Source: Escherichia coli (lineage in GTDB: Bacteria > Pseudomonadota > Gammaproteobacteria > Enterobacterales > Enterobacteriaceae). From it: DNA of 64,000 bases. The notes beneath the pieces were generated by a model. The model made no database searches and was not told the DNA's origin. It saw nothing but the letters and a program-made list of their open reading frames with translations. The translations under genes were made by a program, and so were the position numbers. The DNA lies in assembly GCF_003334815.1 (NCBI RefSeq), contig NZ_QOWO01000003.1; one strand, 5' to 3'. Below are positions 18,838 through 48,900 of this stretch, piece after piece (position 1 is the first letter of the stretch; each line of letters opens with the position of its first letter).

Positions 18838-19335
18838 TGTGAATGCCTGATGCGACGCTTGCCGCGTCTTATCAGGCCTACGCCAGACAGCGCAATAGCC
18901 TGATTTAGCGTGATTTTGTAGGTCGGATAAGGCGTTTATGCCGCATCCGACATCAACGCCTGATGCGACGCTTAACGCGTCTTATCAGGCCTACGCCAGA
19001 CAGCGCAATAGCCTGATTTAGCGTGATTTTGTAGGTCGGATAAGGCGTTTACGCCGCATCCGACATCAACGCCTGATGCGACGCTTGCCGCGTCTTATCA
19101 GGCCTACGCCAGACAGCGCAATAGCCTGATTTAGCGTGATTTTGTAGGTCGGATAAGGCGTTTATGCCGCATCCGACATCAACGCCTGATGCGACGCTTA
19201 ACGCGTCTTATCAGGCCTACGCCAGACAGCGCAATAGCCTGATTTAGCGTGATTTTGTAGGTCGGATAAGGCGTTTACGCCGCATCCGACATCAATGCCT
19301 GATGCGACGCTTGCCGCGTCTTATCAGGCCTATCT
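18838..19335. repeat. Tandem array of about five 113-bp units, each containing paired REP palindromes
   Basis: GCCTGATGCGACGCTT(G/A)... recurs at about 18845, 18958, 19071, 19184 and 19297 (period 113 bp); units near-identical with a few substitutions. Confidence 0.85.
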
Positions 19336-20117: not shown

Positions 20118-22265
20118 TTACGCCAGTGCCGCTTCGCGCAGGCGAGTTTTCAACTTGTTGTACTCGTCAATCACGTACTGCTCGGCGGCGCGCTGATCGG
20201 CGATCGGCTCGACGCGAACGGCGCAGTATTTGTACTCCGGCGTTTTCGTAATCGGGCTTAAGTTTTCAGTAACCAGCTCGTTACAGGCACCAATCCACCA
20301 CTGGTAGGTCATGTAAATCGCCCCTTTGTTCGGACGATCGCTGACCTGCGCACGGGTGATAATTTTGCCTTTACGCGAGTGCACCCAAACCAATGCCTCA
20401 TCTTCAATACCCAGACGTTTGGCGTCTTCGGTATTGATTTGTGCGTAGCCAGGTTCATCAGCCAGCGCCGCCAGTGCCGCACAGTTACCGGTCATCGAAC
20501 GGCAAGAGTAGTGACCAACTTCACGCACCGTTGACAGTACCATCGGGTACTCGTCGGTGAGTTTGTCGATTGGCGCTACCCAGTCGCAGGTGAAGAACTG
20601 CGCCAGACCGTTCGGGGTATCAAACTTCTCTTTAAACAGATAAGAAGTCCCCTGATCGGCATCTGAAGTATCGCGGCAAGGCCACTGAATGAAGCCCAGT
20701 TCGCCCATTTTCTCGTAAGTCGCACCGTAGAAATCCGGGCACAGATGACGCAACTCATCCCAGATCTCCTGGGTGTTGTTGTAGTGCATCGGATAACCCA
20801 TACGGGTGGCGATTTCACTGATGATTTGCCAGTCCGTTTTCAGATCCCATTTCGGTTCAACCGCCTTGAAGAAACGCTGGAAGCCACGGTCAGCCGCAGT
20901 AAACACGCCTTCATGCTCGCCCCACGACGTTGACGGTAAAATAACATCCGCCGCCGACGCGGTTTTGGTCATAAAGATGTCCTGAACGATAACCAGTTCC
21001 AGATCTTCAAAGGCTTTACGTACTGCCGACAGCTCCGCGTCAGTTTGTAGCGGATCTTCGCCCATAATGTACGCGGCACGCACTTCGCCATGCGCTGCGC
21101 GGTGCGGCAGCTCGCTGATGCGATAGCCGGTATGCGCTGGCAGGCTTTCCACGCCCCAGGCTTTGGCGAATTTCTCGCGGTTAGCCGGATCTTTCACGTA
21201 CTGGTATCCCGGATACGTATCCGGCAGCGCGCCCATATCGCAGGCACCCTGAACGTTGTTCTGACCACGAACCGGGTTAACACCCGCATGCGGCTTACCG
21301 AGGTTACCGGTCAGCATCGCGAGGCTGGTCAGAGAACGCACGGTTTCCACGCCCTGGTAGAACTGGGTTACACCCATGCCCCACAGGATGGCGGCGCTTT
21401 TCGCCTGGGCATACATCCGTGCCGCCTGACGAATCTCACTGGCGCTGACGCCGGTGATATCTTCAACCGACTCCGGCGTGTAGCCTTCAACGATTTTACG
21501 ATACTCTTCAAAGCCTTCTGTACGTGAAGCGACGAACGCTTTGTCGTACAGATTTTCTTCAATAATGACATGGCCCATCGCATTCAACAGCGCGATGTTC
21601 GAGCCGTTTTTCAGTGCAATGTGCATGTCAGCAATGCGCGCGGTTTCAATTTTGCGCGGATCGCAGACGATAATTTTCGCCCCGTTACGTTTAGCGTTAA
21701 TTACGTGATTCGCCACGATTGGGTGGGAATCCGCCGGGTTGTACCCGAAAACGAACACTAAATCGGTATTATCAATTTCGTTAATAGCATTGCTCATTGC
21801 GCCATTACCGACCGATTGGTGCAGACCTGCAACCGATGGGCCGTGTCAGACACGAGCGCAGCAGTCAACGTTATTGGTACCAATAACGGCGCGCGCAAAT
21901 TTTTGCATTACATAGTTGGTTTCGTTACCCGTACCACGCGAGGAGCCGGTCGTCTGGATGGCATCCGGACCGTACTTCTCTTTGATGGCGCTCAGGCGCT
22001 CGGCAACGTAATTCAGTGCCTCATCCCAGGAAACAGGTTCGAGTTTGCCGCCACGCTGGCGACGGATCATGGGGGTTTTCAGGCGCGGGGTCAGGATCTG
22101 GGTATCGTTAATGAAGTCCCAGCCATAATAACCCTTCAGACACAGGGTACCCTGGTTGGTTTTCCCCTGCGCTGCCTCCGCCCGGACGATTTTGCCGTTA
22201 TCGACGACCAGGTTGATTTTGCAACCTGATGCGCAATAGGGGCAAACCGTGACGACTTTTTTCAT
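20118..22265 (-). CDS. fdhF: Formate dehydrogenase H (selenocysteine-containing molybdoenzyme of formate hydrogenlyase)
   Basis: Two in-frame ORF-track pieces (21846..22265 ending ...DCCARV, and 20118..21797) joined by a TGA at 21846..21848 read as selenocysteine; total 715 codons. Confidence 0.95.
21800..21848 (-). other. Selenocysteine UGA codon plus downstream SECIS stem-loop
   Basis: mRNA sequence UGA CAC GGC CCA UCG GUU GCA GGU CUG CAC CAA UCG GUC GGU AAU matches the fdhF SECIS as I remember it. Confidence 0.85.
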
Positions 22266-22304
22266 CGGTCTCGCTCCAGTTAATCAAATCACGCATACGC
22301 GCTC

Positions 22305-22333
22305 TCGACTACAGTATGCATCTTTTATGCCAC
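22305..22333 (-). promoter_or_regulatory. Sigma-54 (-24/-12) promoter of fdhF
   Basis: On the minus strand TGGCAT-AAAAG-ATGCA, with GG and GC separated by 10 nt, about 40 nt upstream of the start codon. Confidence 0.75.
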
Positions 22334-22394
22334 ATTTTATGTGGGGTCATTCCCTGATATTACGGGCACTATTTATTCAAAACTCTGACGAAAA

Positions 22395-22440
22395 ACAGGC
22401 TGTCGTCAGTTTTGACGTGACGAAACGAAATACCGCGTGA
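22395..22440 (-). promoter_or_regulatory. Candidate FhlA upstream activating sequence
   Basis: Inverted-repeat-rich TGTCGTCAGTTTTGACGTGACGAAACGAAA about 100 bp upstream of the sigma-54 promoter. Confidence 0.5.
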
Positions 22441-22462
22441 CAGCCATCACGCGGCAGACATT

Positions 22463-23929
22463 TTATTTTTTCTCGACGACGGGACCTGCCTGATACCCGC
22501 CGCCCAGCGATTTCATCAACTGAATGCTTTGGATCACCCGGCGGCTGTCCAGCATCAGTAATGACATCTCTTCGGCAAGCACTGGCAACCGGGCTTCGGT
22601 GGCCTGTAAGCGGCTGGTTAAGCCGCGCTGATAGGCGGCCTCGGCAGCGCGCTGGGTAAAGCGCGTGGCTTCCACGCGTTCAGCCTGCATTTCTCGCTCG
22701 TCGTTGAGCGTTTGCAGACGCGTGCCGTTGACGGCAACGTCACGCACCGCGTTCAGTACTGACTGGTTGTAACGTTCAATCATCATGTTGCTGGCGGCGC
22801 GCGTGCCTTCGAGATTGGCATTCAACCGTCCACCGTCAAACAGCGGCAATTTCAGACCCGGGATGAAGTTGAACTGGCGACTGGTTTTTTTGAATAAGGT
22901 ATGCAGATGGATGGAGTCCAGACCGAAAAACGCTTTGATATCAAAGCTCGGATAGAACAACGCCCGCGCGGAATCCACCTGATCTAATGACGCCTGAACA
23001 TACCAGCGCATGGCTTGCAGATCCGGGCGTCTGGCGAGCAACTCATAAGAGAGTGTCGCCGGAATGCCGGTCTGGACTTGCGGTAATGCCACCGGTCTGA
23101 TCTCCGGCATATCGCTGGCTCCCGCGCCAATCAATGCACGCAGAGATTCTCGCGTTTCGGTGATTTGCCCTTTGACGGCAACAATTTGTTTATCGACCGC
23201 CAGAATCTGTGCCCGCGCGCCGTGGAAAGGCACTTGCGCTTCCAGACCGTGCGCCACTTTACTCTGGTGCGCTTTCACCGCGTAATCAATCACATCGTGA
23301 GTTTGTTCTAACAGATCGAGCATCTGATAGCTGGCCTGCATACTGTAATAAAGCTGCGCTACGCCCGTGGCCAGCGATAGCTCTACTGCTGCGGTTTCTG
23401 CCAGCGCGGCATTATGCGCGCCAATGGCGGCGGCAACCGCTGAGCGATGCACACCCCACAAATCAAGATCCAGTCCGGCAAACAAACCTACTGTGGCTTC
23501 CGTATAGTACGGCCCGTCCATACCCAGTGCTGGCGCATCCATTGAATAAGGGCTTAAAAAGCCGTTCGCCGAGACACGTTGGCGGTTGAGCATCCCTAAC
23601 GCTGCGACCTGTAATTGTGAACCGGCATCTAACAAATCGGCCTGGGACTGCGCTTTTTCTTCCCGCAGTTTCGCTTCGGCGAGGGTGTGTGAACCACTTA
23701 GCGTCCGTTGGATCAGCGCATCCAGCTGCGGGTCATTGAGTTGTTTCCACCACTGCGCCTGCGGCCAGCCGGAGCTGGCAAGATGAATATCGTCGGCCAG
23801 TTTGATTTGTTCCGGTTTGAGCTGTTGATGAGGTGCAGAATCCTTACGTACCAGGGCACAGCCGGAAATCAGCGTCGTGCTGCCGAGAATGCTGCACAAC
23901 AGCAGACGTGAAAGTTGACGATTGATCAT
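22463..23929 (-). CDS. mdtP: Outer-membrane efflux channel (TolC-like) lipoprotein
   Basis: ORF track 488 aa; lipoprotein signal with LISGC lipobox. Confidence 0.9.
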   Translation of the reverse strand: MINRQLSRLLLCSILGSTTLISGCALVRKDSAPHQQLKPEQIKLADDIHLASSGWPQAQWWKQLNDPQLDALIQRTLSGSHTLAEAKLREEKAQSQADLLDAGSQLQVAALGMLNRQRVSANGFLSPYSMDAPALGMDGPYYTEATVGLFAGLDLDLWGVHRSAVAAAIGAHNAALAETAAVELSLATGVAQLYYSMQASYQMLDLLEQTHDVIDYAVKAHQSKVAHGLEAQVPFHGARAQILAVDKQIVAVKGQITETRESLRALIGAGASDMPEIRPVALPQVQTGIPATLSYELLARRPDLQAMRWYVQASLDQVDSARALFYPSFDIKAFFGLDSIHLHTLFKKTSRQFNFIPGLKLPLFDGGRLNANLEGTRAASNMMIERYNQSVLNAVRDVAVNGTRLQTLNDEREMQAERVEATRFTQRAAEAAYQRGLTSRLQATEARLPVLAEEMSLLMLDSRRVIQSIQLMKSLGGGYQAGPVVEKK

Positions 23930-25977
23930 TGCGTGGCTCCTTGTGCCTGTTCCGTGGCGGGCGTTAATGCCGGGGCTGTCCAGTCTGGCAAGCGGGCGAA
24001 AAGCTGGCAGACGTGTTGCTCCTGTTTTAATAAGGTGGGCAGGATGGCCTGAGAGGCGGGTGTCTCTTCAAGCGTTATTTGAGGAGAACGGCTGAGTGCG
24101 GTTGCCAGACCGGCAGCGTATTTCTCCAGGGCGTCGGCAAACTGACCTGCTCTGTCCGGCTGTAGTGCGTTATCCAGCGCCTGCGCCGAGTTCCAGGTGG
24201 CATCCCAGGCGTGAAGAAGATCGCGGCCCTGACGAATAACCGTTTGCGAACGTTCAATCAGTAATGCGCGTTCTTCGCTGTCCAGTTGACGCTCCAGCGC
24301 CACGCGTTGGCACATCTCTTCACAGGCATTAAACGCCGCATGCAGACCGATACGAATTTGCAGATAAGTGCGCAGAGCCGTGACTTCCTGCTGGCGTGGG
24401 ATCCGCATTACTTTACTTAACATACCCAGCGTGCCAGCCAGTTTTTGCGGCAGTGTGCGCGCTTCACTTTCAGGCCAGACAAAGGTGTAAATCACCGCGG
24501 ACACCACGGTACCAATGATGATACCCAGGGCGCGATCGCGAATTTCCACCAGGTCGTACACTGGGCCAAAAACGTTTTCGAGCGTGGCGAGCGCGAAGGT
24601 GACCACCATCTGTGTGCCGATATAAGAAGAGCGTTCAGAGCTGGTGGCAATCCATGCGCCCAACAGGAAAATCGGTGCCAGCACAAACAGCAATTCGACA
24701 ATATTGTCCAGCCAGGGCATGACCAGTAGCGTGAATAACAGCGCCAGAATCGCGCCGCAAAAGGCCCCGCCAAAACGCAGCACCATCTTCTGGTACGACG
24801 AACCGACATTTGGGTTAGCGACGATCACGCATGTCAGCATACAGGTGTGAATGCCTTCCCAGTCCACGCCGCTGTAAAAGGTGTAACAGATCAAACAGGC
24901 GAGCAGCGTTTTTACCGCGTAGCGCATATAGTCTGGATTGGTAAAAGCATCGGCGGCCATTGATGGCGGTTTGGCTGCGGGCGTTGGCGGCGTATTCGGG
25001 TCCATCTGACCCAGTTGTAACAACGTCTGGCAGATATTCTCCAGGTTACATTCCCGTGCCGCCATCGCTTCACTTTCACTGATCCGCCAGTCGCTTTGCC
25101 AGCACTGACCTTCAGCAACGGCATGCTGCAGCTTGTTGATTTCTGAAGCTAATTTTTGTCGGAATTCAATAATTGCCTGAGAATCAGCAAAAGAGGTGGG
25201 ATCGTAGCGATTCAGCGTCGAGTAAATGTAGGTTACCGTTGCCACGCAGCTTTGCCACCATGCGTTTTGAGTTCGCCAGTTGGCATCGTCCGCGAGGCAA
25301 AAGACATTGAGTTTTTGTAGCGCCAGCGCCTCTCTTTCAATCCGCGTTTCGGGTAGCGGTGCGAGGCTGTCTGTCAGGTGACTAATGGCATCATCAAGCC
25401 GATCATTAAGCGCCTGATGCATTTGCGAAATGGCACGACTGGGAAACCACAGCACGCCGATTAACGTCATCAGCAAGGTTGGATAGAGGCCAACAACGAT
25501 ACACCACAGCGTTAAGCGCACGACCACTTCCGGATAGTCGAGCATGGCGGGGAAGGTTTGCCCGTAAATAGCGACAATGGCGACGGCGAAAAAGACCAGC
25601 CCCAAGCGATGGGTGCGCATCAAAAACATGCAGCCCATCAGGATCGGTCCGGCGATGATCAATCGGATCAACGGTTCGCCGTATGACCATTTGTAGATCA
25701 AAAACAGGCTGCCGATCTCCAGCACCGTGGCAACCACAAACAAGATCGCGACAAATTTGGTGTAAAACGCGTTCGACTGAATACCGTAAAACAGCACTGC
25801 CAGCGATAACGCCACAAAAGGGATCTCAAAGGTCATCGAGATCAGAATCACCAGCAGGCAGCCTACCCAGAGTTGCACGGTCTGCGGCACGCGACCTGGT
25901 CGCCGCTCGCTTAACTCTTCATGAAAGAACGCCAGCAGCCTGACCACCGGTAATGGCAGGGAGTTGAGCGCGCTCAT
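23926..25977 (-). CDS. mdtO: Inner-membrane exporter of the FUSC/AaeB-like family
   Basis: ORF track 683 aa; overlaps mdtP and mdtN. Confidence 0.9.
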   Translation of the reverse strand: MSALNSLPLPVVRLLAFFHEELSERRPGRVPQTVQLWVGCLLVILISMTFEIPFVALSLAVLFYGIQSNAFYTKFVAILFVVATVLEIGSLFLIYKWSYGEPLIRLIIAGPILMGCMFLMRTHRLGLVFFAVAIVAIYGQTFPAMLDYPEVVVRLTLWCIVVGLYPTLLMTLIGVLWFPSRAISQMHQALNDRLDDAISHLTDSLAPLPETRIEREALALQKLNVFCLADDANWRTQNAWWQSCVATVTYIYSTLNRYDPTSFADSQAIIEFRQKLASEINKLQHAVAEGQCWQSDWRISESEAMAARECNLENICQTLLQLGQMDPNTPPTPAAKPPSMAADAFTNPDYMRYAVKTLLACLICYTFYSGVDWEGIHTCMLTCVIVANPNVGSSYQKMVLRFGGAFCGAILALLFTLLVMPWLDNIVELLFVLAPIFLLGAWIATSSERSSYIGTQMVVTFALATLENVFGPVYDLVEIRDRALGIIIGTVVSAVIYTFVWPESEARTLPQKLAGTLGMLSKVMRIPRQQEVTALRTYLQIRIGLHAAFNACEEMCQRVALERQLDSEERALLIERSQTVIRQGRDLLHAWDATWNSAQALDNALQPDRAGQFADALEKYAAGLATALSRSPQITLEETPASQAILPTLLKQEQHVCQLFARLPDWTAPALTPATEQAQGATQ

Positions 25978-27510: not shown

Positions 27511-29420
27511 TTAATTTGGGGTTACGATATTCACCCACAAATCGAAATTATCCAGACAGGCGATAATTTCTTCCAGTTTCGCGCCATTGCCAATAATTTT
27601 GGCTTTCTTCGCTTTTACCAGATCCGCCATTTTGGCTTGTCCGGTCAGCACGGCGTGCAGATCTTCACGGCTGATGTAGAAAGAGGCGTCGGCTTGCGGT
27701 TGCAGCGTTTTCCGGTAGTTAAGCACGCTATCGTTCAGCGTCAGGTTGAGGTTATCGCCGTTGCTCATATTGAAGTTCAGGCTGATATTTTTACCCGCAG
27801 CTTTCGCGCTATCGAGGCGAACGGCCATAAAGTCGAACAGCATTTCGACCGACATCCCGCGAATGGTGTCCGGGGAACCGGTGGTGCCGTGGCTGAACTT
27901 ATGCACCCCTTCGCGCAGCTCTTTCGCGCCGGTCAGGTAGAAACCGCGCCATGTGGCGGACTCGGCCTGATAGCCCAGCTGTTCAAAGTTATTCGCTTGC
28001 AGATTCTTCGCGACCTGGTCACCCGGGTTGGCGGCAATCACCTGTTTCAGCAGTTCTGCCGACCAGCGGTAATCACCTTGCTTGTTCGCTTCTTGCGCCA
28101 GGTTGATGACACGGGCAGAACCGCCCAGCGCCTGCACGTAACGTTTACCCATCTCCACCTGACCATACGGATGCAGGTTAGCCGGGTTACCGTCGTAATA
28201 GCCAAGATAGAAGTTATACACCGCGCGGGCGTTGTGGCTGACAGAACCGTAATAGCCGCGGCTGGCCCAGTTATTGGCAAGTGCAGGCGGCAGCTTAATC
28301 ATGTCGCCGATTTCATTCATGGTGTAGCCCTGGTTCGCCAGGTGTGCGGCATAAACAGCACTTCCGCGTCGTTACCCCACATATCCAGCGTTTCGTTCAG
28401 ATACTCGGTCCACTTGCTGGTGTCGCGGGTTTTCGCGCCGCGCAGAGTGTAGAAGTTGTGCAGGGTATGCGTGGCGTTCTCGGCGGTACACAGGGCTTTC
28501 AGGGCCGGAATATAGAAGTGCATTTCGGCTGGCGCTTCGCTACCTGGGGTCATCAGGAAGTCAAACTCCAGGCCGTCGATAATCATCTTCTCGCCAGTTC
28601 TGACGATAGTTTTCGTCGGTGCAATAATGCTCGGGTCGCCCGTTGCCAGCGTCACGCCAAGGCCATTACCCACATTGCCTTGCGCGTTGTGCGGCAGTAA
28701 CAGACCGTAAGAGTAGAGCGCACGGCGGCTCATGATGTTACCCGCCAGCACGTTTTCGCTGATGGCTTCGTCCATAAAGCCTGCAGGGGCAATCACCTGA
28801 ACTTTGCCGGATTTAACATCGGCTTCAGAGATAATGCCTTTCACGCCACCATAGTGGTCGGTGTGGCTGTGAGTGTAGATAACGGCAACAATCGGTTTTT
28901 GCGGACGATGCTGGAAGTAAAGGTCAAGTGCGGCTTTTGCGGCAGGCGGCGTCACCAGCGGGTCGATAACAATAATGCCTTTCTCGCCCTCAACGAACGT
29001 AATGTTAGAGATATCCTGGCCGCGCACCTGATACATTTTATCGGTGACTTTGAACAGGCCAGAAATACCGTTGATTTGCGACTGACGCCACAGGCTGGGG
29101 TTTACGGTTTCCGGCGCTGCGGCATTAATATCAAATTTGTAATCGTCCGCGCGGTAGTAAACTTTACCGTTCGCATCACGCAGAATACCTTCATCCAGCA
29201 GCGGGGCGATAAATCCACGCTGGGCATCGTCAAAATCCTGACGATCGCTAAACGGTAATGATTTGGCGTAATTCTGATTAACCTGTTGGGTATATTGAGT
29301 GGCGGCTTTCGCTTCCTCTTTCGCGTTAGCGGTATTTACCATCATGCCGCTGGCGGCAGTTAACGCAATAACAATCCTGCTCAAACGGAATAACCGAGAG
29401 TTATTCATATAAATCTCCAT
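27511..29420 (-). pseudogene. yjcS: SdsA1-like alkyl sulfatase (MBL fold plus SCP2 domain), disrupted by a frame shift
   Basis: ORF track splits it into 28317..29420 (367 aa, ends ...[16 protein letters not shown]) and 27511..28320 (continues ...[12 protein letters not shown]... in another frame); junction near 28335..28340. Confidence 0.7.
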
Positions 29421-48552: not shown

Positions 48553-48616
48553 GATGGTGACCTCAGTTAAGAGAAGCCAGTTAAGTGTAGTTCGAAATTT
48601 ATACAGATGAGAGGCG

Positions 48617-48900
<284 letters not shown>

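Follow-up and report, generated by a model that had tools for sequence, protein, structure and literature searches.

The sigma-54 promoter and FhlA enhancer that make up the fdhF control region in an Escherichia coli genome

The 197-bp intergenic region between fdhF and mdtP (positions 22266-22462 of the 64,000-nucleotide stretch of Escherichia coli DNA analyzed here, hereafter the window) is almost certainly the native control region of fdhF, composed of a sigma-54 promoter and an upstream enhancer bound by FhlA, with transcription predicted to start near G22306. The elements themselves, their statistical distinctness, their conservation and the motif shared with other promoters of the regulon were observed directly, and the occupancy by sigma-54, the dependence on rpoN and fhlA, and the sensing of formate are taken from the literature; the analysis found nothing that contradicts this reading. 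The promoter is identical base for base to that of K-12 and is already known. It is a classic sigma-54/enhancer system that has been characterized since the late 1980s, and the primary literature already reports that an rpoN mutant no longer transcribes fdhF. The result carries little weight as a discovery; the analysis fixes the exact coordinates and the strand of each element, and the original prediction, made from the letters alone, shows that a genuine sigma-54 promoter with its enhancer can be recognized in raw sequence.

The window comes from E. coli: the 501 bases at 22100-22600 are 100% identical to K-12 MG1655 and to many other strains, and this 501-bp stretch, annotated as the fdhF/mdtP junction, was found in 5420 of the 5426 complete E. 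coli genomes. Comparison with the K-12 fdhF promoter (fdhFp) and its upstream activating sequence (UAS) shows no difference in the region, with the same sequence, the same sigma-54 17-mer and the same 41-bp distance from the start to the ATG. Over the whole window, the identity to MG1655 is about 99.9%, with about 0.1% substitutions and a few repeat-number indels. The length differences include a net 111 bp in the gltP-yjcO spacer (18842-19332), where the repeat units are about 113 bp long, 88 bp near 28337, reflecting the copy number of a tandem intergenic repeat, and about 300 bp in 100-bp repeats at approximately 48616-48899; given these differences in tandem-repeat copy number, the strain is K-12-like and not the reference assembly itself.

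The coding sequence of fdhF (formate dehydrogenase H) occupies 20118..22265 on the minus strand according to the RefSeq annotation of the identical DNA and the list of open reading frames (ORFs). The ATG is at 22265..22263 and the Shine-Dalgarno sequence GGAG at 22277..22274 (both on the minus strand, from the ORF list and the annotation), the latter within ACTGGAGC, which is invariant across genera. The ORF finder reports two fdhF ORFs (20118-21797 and 21846-22265) because the frame is interrupted by the in-frame TGA for selenocysteine (21846-21848, minus strand), which is accompanied by a SECIS. The latter, a SECIS_2 element that spans the TGA (21799-21853, minus strand; 87 bits), was the sole Rfam match, and no RNA families were detected by Rfam in the fdhF-mdtP intergenic region. 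On the far side of this region lies mdtP, a minus-strand gene like fdhF, with its end at 22463 (stop codon 22463-22465; ORF list and annotation). Read in the sense of the gene, that is, on the minus strand, the sequence upstream of fdhF is ...aaaatgTGGCATAAAAGATGCAtactgtagtcG....

The sigma-54 -24/-12 element TGGCATAAAAGATGCA (TGGCAT-AAAAG-ATGCA) was identified at 22332..22317 on the minus strand, in the fdhF sense, by both pattern and matrix. As originally predicted, it has the form TGGCAT-N5-ATGCA with a GG-to-GC spacing of 10: the GG is at 22331/22330 (-25/-24) and the GC at 22319/22318 (-13/-12), with exactly 10 nt between them. The element departs from the TGGCAC-N5-TTGCW consensus in two positions, C-to-T (TGGCAT) and T-to-A (ATGCA). 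It is the sole match to the degenerate pattern TGGCAYN5WTGCW in the 64-kb window; however, 0.5 such matches per 64 kb are expected by chance on the two strands, and at least one was produced by 40 of 100 shuffles, so that the string by itself is not significant, and matrix rank, position and conservation were used instead. With the position weight matrix of PMC7658346, which is derived from 186 sigma-54 promoters, the fdhF site scores 13.76 bits (the maximum being 21.1) and ranks second among the approximately 128,000 positions of the window, where the background has a mean of -22 and a standard deviation of 8.5. The chance of obtaining a score of this rank in the sense orientation within the 197-bp intergenic region is of the order of 1e-3. 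Thus, the assignment to the sigma-54 promoters is borne out by the GG-N10-GC arrangement, the high score, the sense placement in an intergenic region and the conservation in orthologs alike.

The -12 element ends 51 nt 5' of the fdhF ATG, which is farther than the roughly 40 nt that the original prediction had placed between the element and the gene; a distance of 41 nt is instead that of the predicted transcription start. By the rule of Bonocora et al. 2015, which sets the start 19 bp downstream of the center of the motif, transcription is predicted to begin at G22306 (minus strand), 12 nt 3' of the C of the -12 GC. The resulting predicted 5' untranslated region (UTR) of 41 nt, obtained from the geometry of the window, is the same as the distance given by Bonocora et al. 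2015.

Published chromatin immunoprecipitation data bear directly on this element. Bonocora et al. 2015 (PMC4591121) reported a sigma-54 ChIP-seq peak, OS41, with the motif GTGGCATAAAAGATGCA upstream of fdhF and a fold above threshold of 41; the promoter is marked as experimentally confirmed in EcoCyc, and the predicted start is 41 bp from fdhF. The 17-mer in the window is identical to this MG1655 motif (PMC4591121). ChIP-chip detected sigma-54 at the Salmonella fdhF site, TGGCATAAAACATGCATA, which differs from that of E. coli by one spacer base; in the microarray data, the list of sigma-54-dependent transcripts gives fdhF at 29, with FhlA as the activator (Samuels et al. 2013, PMC3844500). 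In Proteus mirabilis, an fdhF reporter was induced by formate and had lower activity in fhlA and rpoN mutants (PMC7658346).

These data weigh against the possibility that the -24/-12 match is a chance occurrence or a silent sigma-54 site and that another promoter, of the sigma-70 type, drives fdhF. The frequency of the degenerate pattern expected by chance would be compatible with such an explanation, as would the many non-productive sigma-54 sites known in E. coli (PMC4591121) and the existence of a higher-scoring matrix match, TGGCAGACGTGTTGCT (24005-24020, plus strand; 14.89 bits, the best in the window), located antisense inside mdtO. However, no sigma-70-like promoter was found by a promoter scan of 22100-22700; the sigma-54 element is invariant and occupies a fixed position in orthologs across three families of Enterobacterales; and the fdhF promoter is, as noted above, experimentally confirmed, with sigma-54 dependence in Salmonella and rpoN dependence in Proteus. 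A chance or silent site is, accordingly, highly improbable, and we consider the element to be the sigma-54 promoter of fdhF. As for the mdtO match, the main text of the paper on ChIP-seq in E. coli mentions neither TGGCAGACGTGTTGCT nor the names mdtO and mdtP.

Upstream of the promoter lies an array of short repeats of the GTCA/TGAC type. Its core, TCGTCA-CGTCA-AAAC-TGACGA (22423..22403, minus strand), was delineated by two inverted repeats and contains the tightest palindrome, CGTCA-AAAC-TGACG (CGTCAAAACTGACG; 22417..22404, that is, -111..-98), in which the half-sites CGTCA (22417..22413) and TGACGA (22408..22403) are separated by AAAC, along with an extra left half-site, TCGTCA (22423..22418). 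A third conserved half-site, TTCGTCA (22392..22386, -86..-80), whose TCGTCA occupies 22391..22386 (-85 to -80), repeats the left half-sites in direct orientation, and a possible additional one, GTCAC (22441..22437, -135..-131), stands 18 nt upstream of the core containing the palindrome; all are on the minus strand, and a function of GTCAC is putative. In the gene sense, the order of the array is GTCAC - 13 nt - TCGTCA CGTCA AAAC TGACGA - 11 nt - TCGTCA G. Among the repeats given by the repeat finder are arms of 6 bp (TCGTCA/TGACGA) around a 9-nt spacer, arms of 7 bp (CTGACGA/TCGTCAG) around an 11-nt spacer, and a direct repeat in which TGACGAAA occurs twice with a spacing of 32 bp, from 22423..22418 to the third half-site.

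The inverted repeats quoted in the original prediction, TGTCGTCA (22401-22408) and TGACGTGACGAAA (22413-22425), are both present on the plus strand. All the strings that it named thus exist in the window, but it mixed the strands, giving the promoter in the gene sense and the repeats from the plus strand; in the gene sense, the repeats read TTTCGTCACGTCA...TGACGACA. Their placement about 100 bp further upstream is acceptable: the UAS repeats are 70-95 bp upstream of the -24 element and are centered at about -104 relative to the predicted start, and 78 bp separate the center of the palindrome from the T of TGGCA downstream. The primary work reportedly mapped the enhancer at about -110, in agreement with its placement here some 100 bp 5' of the start.

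The array stands out in the window as a whole. The 60 bp starting at 22385 contain five GTCA/TGAC tetramers, compared to a mean of 0.49, and four CGTCA/TGACG pentamers, and neither count is equaled anywhere else in the 64 kb. The window has just two copies of the strict palindrome CGWCA-N4-TGWCG, one upstream of fdhF and the other at 61001-61014. The latter occurrence, CGACATTGTTGTCG, was rejected as a second site and considered a chance match: it lies inside adiA, according to the alignment with MG1655, and there is no sigma-54 site nearby.

Another line of evidence comes from the comparison of fdhF loci, which was anchored on the coding pattern for the CPYCASGCKI sequence of FdhF and not on the promoter. 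Contigs from one genome per species were searched, yielding at least 120 loci, and the comparison took in the 119 sequences that had 200 nt or more of upstream DNA (118 of the listed loci and the window itself). A sigma-54 site scoring at least 11.5 bits was present in 79 of these 119 listed fdhF-type loci, against about 0.02 per locus expected by chance, mostly 70-110 nt upstream of the coding anchor. Nearly all of the 79 sigma-54-positive loci listed belong to Enterobacteriaceae, Morganellaceae and Hafniaceae. Among the matches listed, the palindrome CGWCA-N4-TGWCG was found in 75 of the 79 sigma-54-positive loci vs none of the 40 sigma-54-negative ones, a contrast that overstates the number of independent events because the compared genomes are related. 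In at least 44 of the listed loci, the window included, the center of the palindrome precedes the T of TGGCA by 78 bp.

The conserved elements persist where the surrounding sequence can no longer be aligned. In the MAFFT alignment of 26 Enterobacteriaceae sequences, the blocks TCGwCACGTCA-N4-TGwCG-A and TGGCA...TGCAT are invariant, as are the Shine-Dalgarno sequence ACTGGAGC and the ATG; tTCGTCA is near-invariant, and the flanks drift between the blocks. Among the matches listed, 56 of 61 loci have TCGTCA at the constant offset of +32, and 49 of the 61 Enterobacteriaceae loci listed have a GTCAC 16-19 nt 5' of the core, where the flanking genes differ, and even at loci without a terminator. 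What the data support for these extra half-site elements is their conservation; a functional role would be putative.

Both the sigma-54 site and the palindrome are absent upstream of the fdhF-like genes of Pasteurellaceae (at least five loci), Oxalobacter (at least three loci) and Budvicia/Pragia (at least three loci), and likewise upstream of paralogs (at least four loci), among them those of the MKTVTTVCPYCASGCKMQ type. The fdhF-like genes that encode CPYCASGCKI and lack both elements must be controlled differently. Comparison of the loci thus provides a rule, TGGCA-N7-TGCA combined with CGWCA-N4-TGWCG 70-115 bp upstream, that splits the FhlA-controlled fdhF of Enterobacterales from the fdhF-like genes of Pasteurellaceae and Oxalobacter and from the paralogs.

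Within the sigma-54-positive assemblage, the fdhF loci of Hafniaceae and Morganellaceae (Hafnia, Edwardsiella, Proteus, Providencia, Morganella) resemble that of E. coli in having a sigma-54 site of 14-17 bits with a palindrome upstream. Their palindrome, however, is simpler, with 6-bp arms (TCGACA-N4-TGTCGA or TGACGA) and without the extra CGTCA of Enterobacteriaceae, and is centered 99-114 bp upstream of the T of TGGCA, compared to 78 bp in E. coli; several of these genes also have longer 5' UTRs, from 100 to about 170 nt. The simpler palindrome was observed in 14 loci. From this comparison, the extra copy of CGTCA looks like a tandem duplication of the left half-site that is specific to Enterobacteriaceae. 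The enhancer-promoter distances across the families are -69/-70, -78..-81, -99..-104 and -111..-114; their steps of roughly 9, 22 and 34 bp fit multiples of 10.5 only loosely, which gives no basis for claiming a shared helical face.

A more elaborate architecture of the Enterobacteriaceae enhancer can be envisaged, a speculative one that we rate as rather unlikely: it might comprise five GTCA-type half-sites over about 56 bp (22441..22386), in which the tandemly duplicated left half-site (TCGWCA/CGTCA) would offer two registers for FhlA (N4 and N9) and the outermost half-site would reside in the stem of the mdtNOP terminator.

The assignment of the repeats to FhlA draws on the FhlA matrix, which is based on 13 sites (PMC7658346) and has the consensus TGTC-RAWRAT-GACA, that is, GWC-N6-GWC. 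CGTCAAAACTGACG scores 8.2 bits with this matrix, the best in the intergenic region but only about rank 105 in the window; therefore, the matrix alone is not decisive and would not single out the fdhF palindrome. In MG1655, the same matrix identifies the GWC-N6-GWC palindromes TGTCGAAAATGACA and CGTCAAAAATGACA in the hycA-hycB region and the palindrome TGTCGATGATGTCG in the hycA-hypA (hyc-hyp) region; CGTCACTAGTGTCG, upstream of hydN, comes from the palindrome search and not from the matrix. By its sequence, the fdhF palindrome is of the same type as those at the other FhlA-controlled promoters of E. coli. The hyc, hyp and hydN-hypF promoters, like that of fdhF, combine a sigma-54 -24/-12 element with GWC-N6-GWC palindromes. 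The fdhF promoter differs from them in having one full CGTCA-N4-TGACG palindrome and direct-repeat half-sites (TCGTCA, 5 bp upstream of the palindrome center, and TTCGTCA, 22 bp downstream of it) instead of two clear palindromes, and fdhF itself forms a single-gene transcription unit that is not linked to the hyc/hyp cluster.

A review (PMC4987338) gives the 16-mer CATTTCGTACGAAATG as the consensus of the FhlA enhancer, but this string is of no help in this respect. Its best match at fdhF has 7 mismatches, which is the chance level, with 401 positions of the window matching equally well or better, and the fit at hyc, hyp and hydN is also poor (5-7 mismatches). Given the lack of fit at fdhF and at the other three regions alike, the 16-mer was rejected as a test of membership; it is unusable rather than counter-evidence. 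All in all, the palindrome type, the placement about 100 bp upstream, the motif of the regulon and the co-inheritance with the promoter identify the array as an FhlA UAS, an assignment that is weak when judged by the matrix alone.

The surroundings of the array require a separate account. The intrinsic terminator of the mdtNOP operon, a hairpin (22431..22456, minus strand) followed by the T-rich tail TATTTCGTTTCG, was detected by a terminator scan; its RNA folds at -18.1 kcal/mol (z -4.0), and none of 200 shuffles folds as well. The terminator adjoins and overlaps the fdhF enhancer, with GTCAC (22441..22437) lying within the 3' arm of the stem, and is not a part of the fdhF promoter. The interval 22300-22440 that the original prediction assigned to the promoter and its enhancer also takes in the 3' arm of the mdtP terminator hairpin, as well as the third half-site, which the prediction left unnamed.

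The upstream repeats might be structural leftovers of the mdtP terminator or might be bound mainly by a regulator other than FhlA, one candidate being the paralog HyfR. Such an explanation could invoke the modest score of the FhlA matrix, the lack of fit to CATTTCGTACGAAATG, and the contiguity of the array with the terminator hairpin, one GTCAC being within the stem. Nevertheless, the core repeats are invariant in genera with a different upstream gene and terminator and co-occur strictly with the sigma-54 promoter among the loci listed, the same type of palindrome is present at hyc, hyp and hydN, and FhlA is known from the literature to bind upstream of fdhF. We, therefore, give this explanation very little credence and regard the repeats as the enhancer for FhlA. 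The original prediction of FhlA-activated, formate-dependent sigma-54 transcription is, in turn, supported by the published sigma-54 occupancy, the P. mirabilis mutants, the co-occurrence of the palindrome and the promoter among the loci listed, and the palindromes of the regulon.

FhlA consists of an N-terminal domain that binds formate, a central AAA+ ATPase, and a C-terminal helix-turn-helix that binds upstream of fdhF and hyc. In the mechanism that follows, sigma-54 RNA polymerase occupies the -24/-12 element (22332..22317, minus strand) and forms a closed complex, unable to open alone. FhlA, whose own gene is not in this region but stands last in the hyp operon, binds the array of GTCA/TGAC half-sites, which is centered at about -104 (22423..22386, possibly to 22441). 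Binding of formate to the N-terminal domain leads to ATP hydrolysis and, presumably by looping of the spacer of about 55 bp, to contact with the polymerase and formation of the open complex, with transcription predicted to proceed from near G22306 and to yield an mRNA with a 41-nt leader. In this scheme, it is the start, the half-sites contacted and the looping that we infer. Induction is set by the levels of formate, which are themselves governed by FocA and the respiratory dehydrogenases, and the fdhF promoter is in use as a part of formate biosensors (PMC6540204).

The spacer between the enhancer and the -24 element includes a moderately conserved block (22341-22366, minus strand; cCGTAAtATC ... 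ATaCCCaCA). A search for an IHF site in the spacer gave TATCAGGGAATGA (22359..22347, minus strand) as the best match, with 2 mismatches, a level that is reached 0.8 times per 100 bp in the window and is not above chance; it speaks neither for nor against IHF. Downstream of the promoter, the predicted leader opens with a small hairpin, GAGAGCGCGUAUGCGUGAUUUG, in the 5' UTR of fdhF (22285-22306, minus strand). At the corresponding point of the leader, other genera carry short GC-rich stretches that are self-complementary but of different sequence (for example, agcgcatatgcgc and ggcggtttgc...gccg), which hints at a conserved 5' stem-loop of fdhF rather than a conserved sequence.
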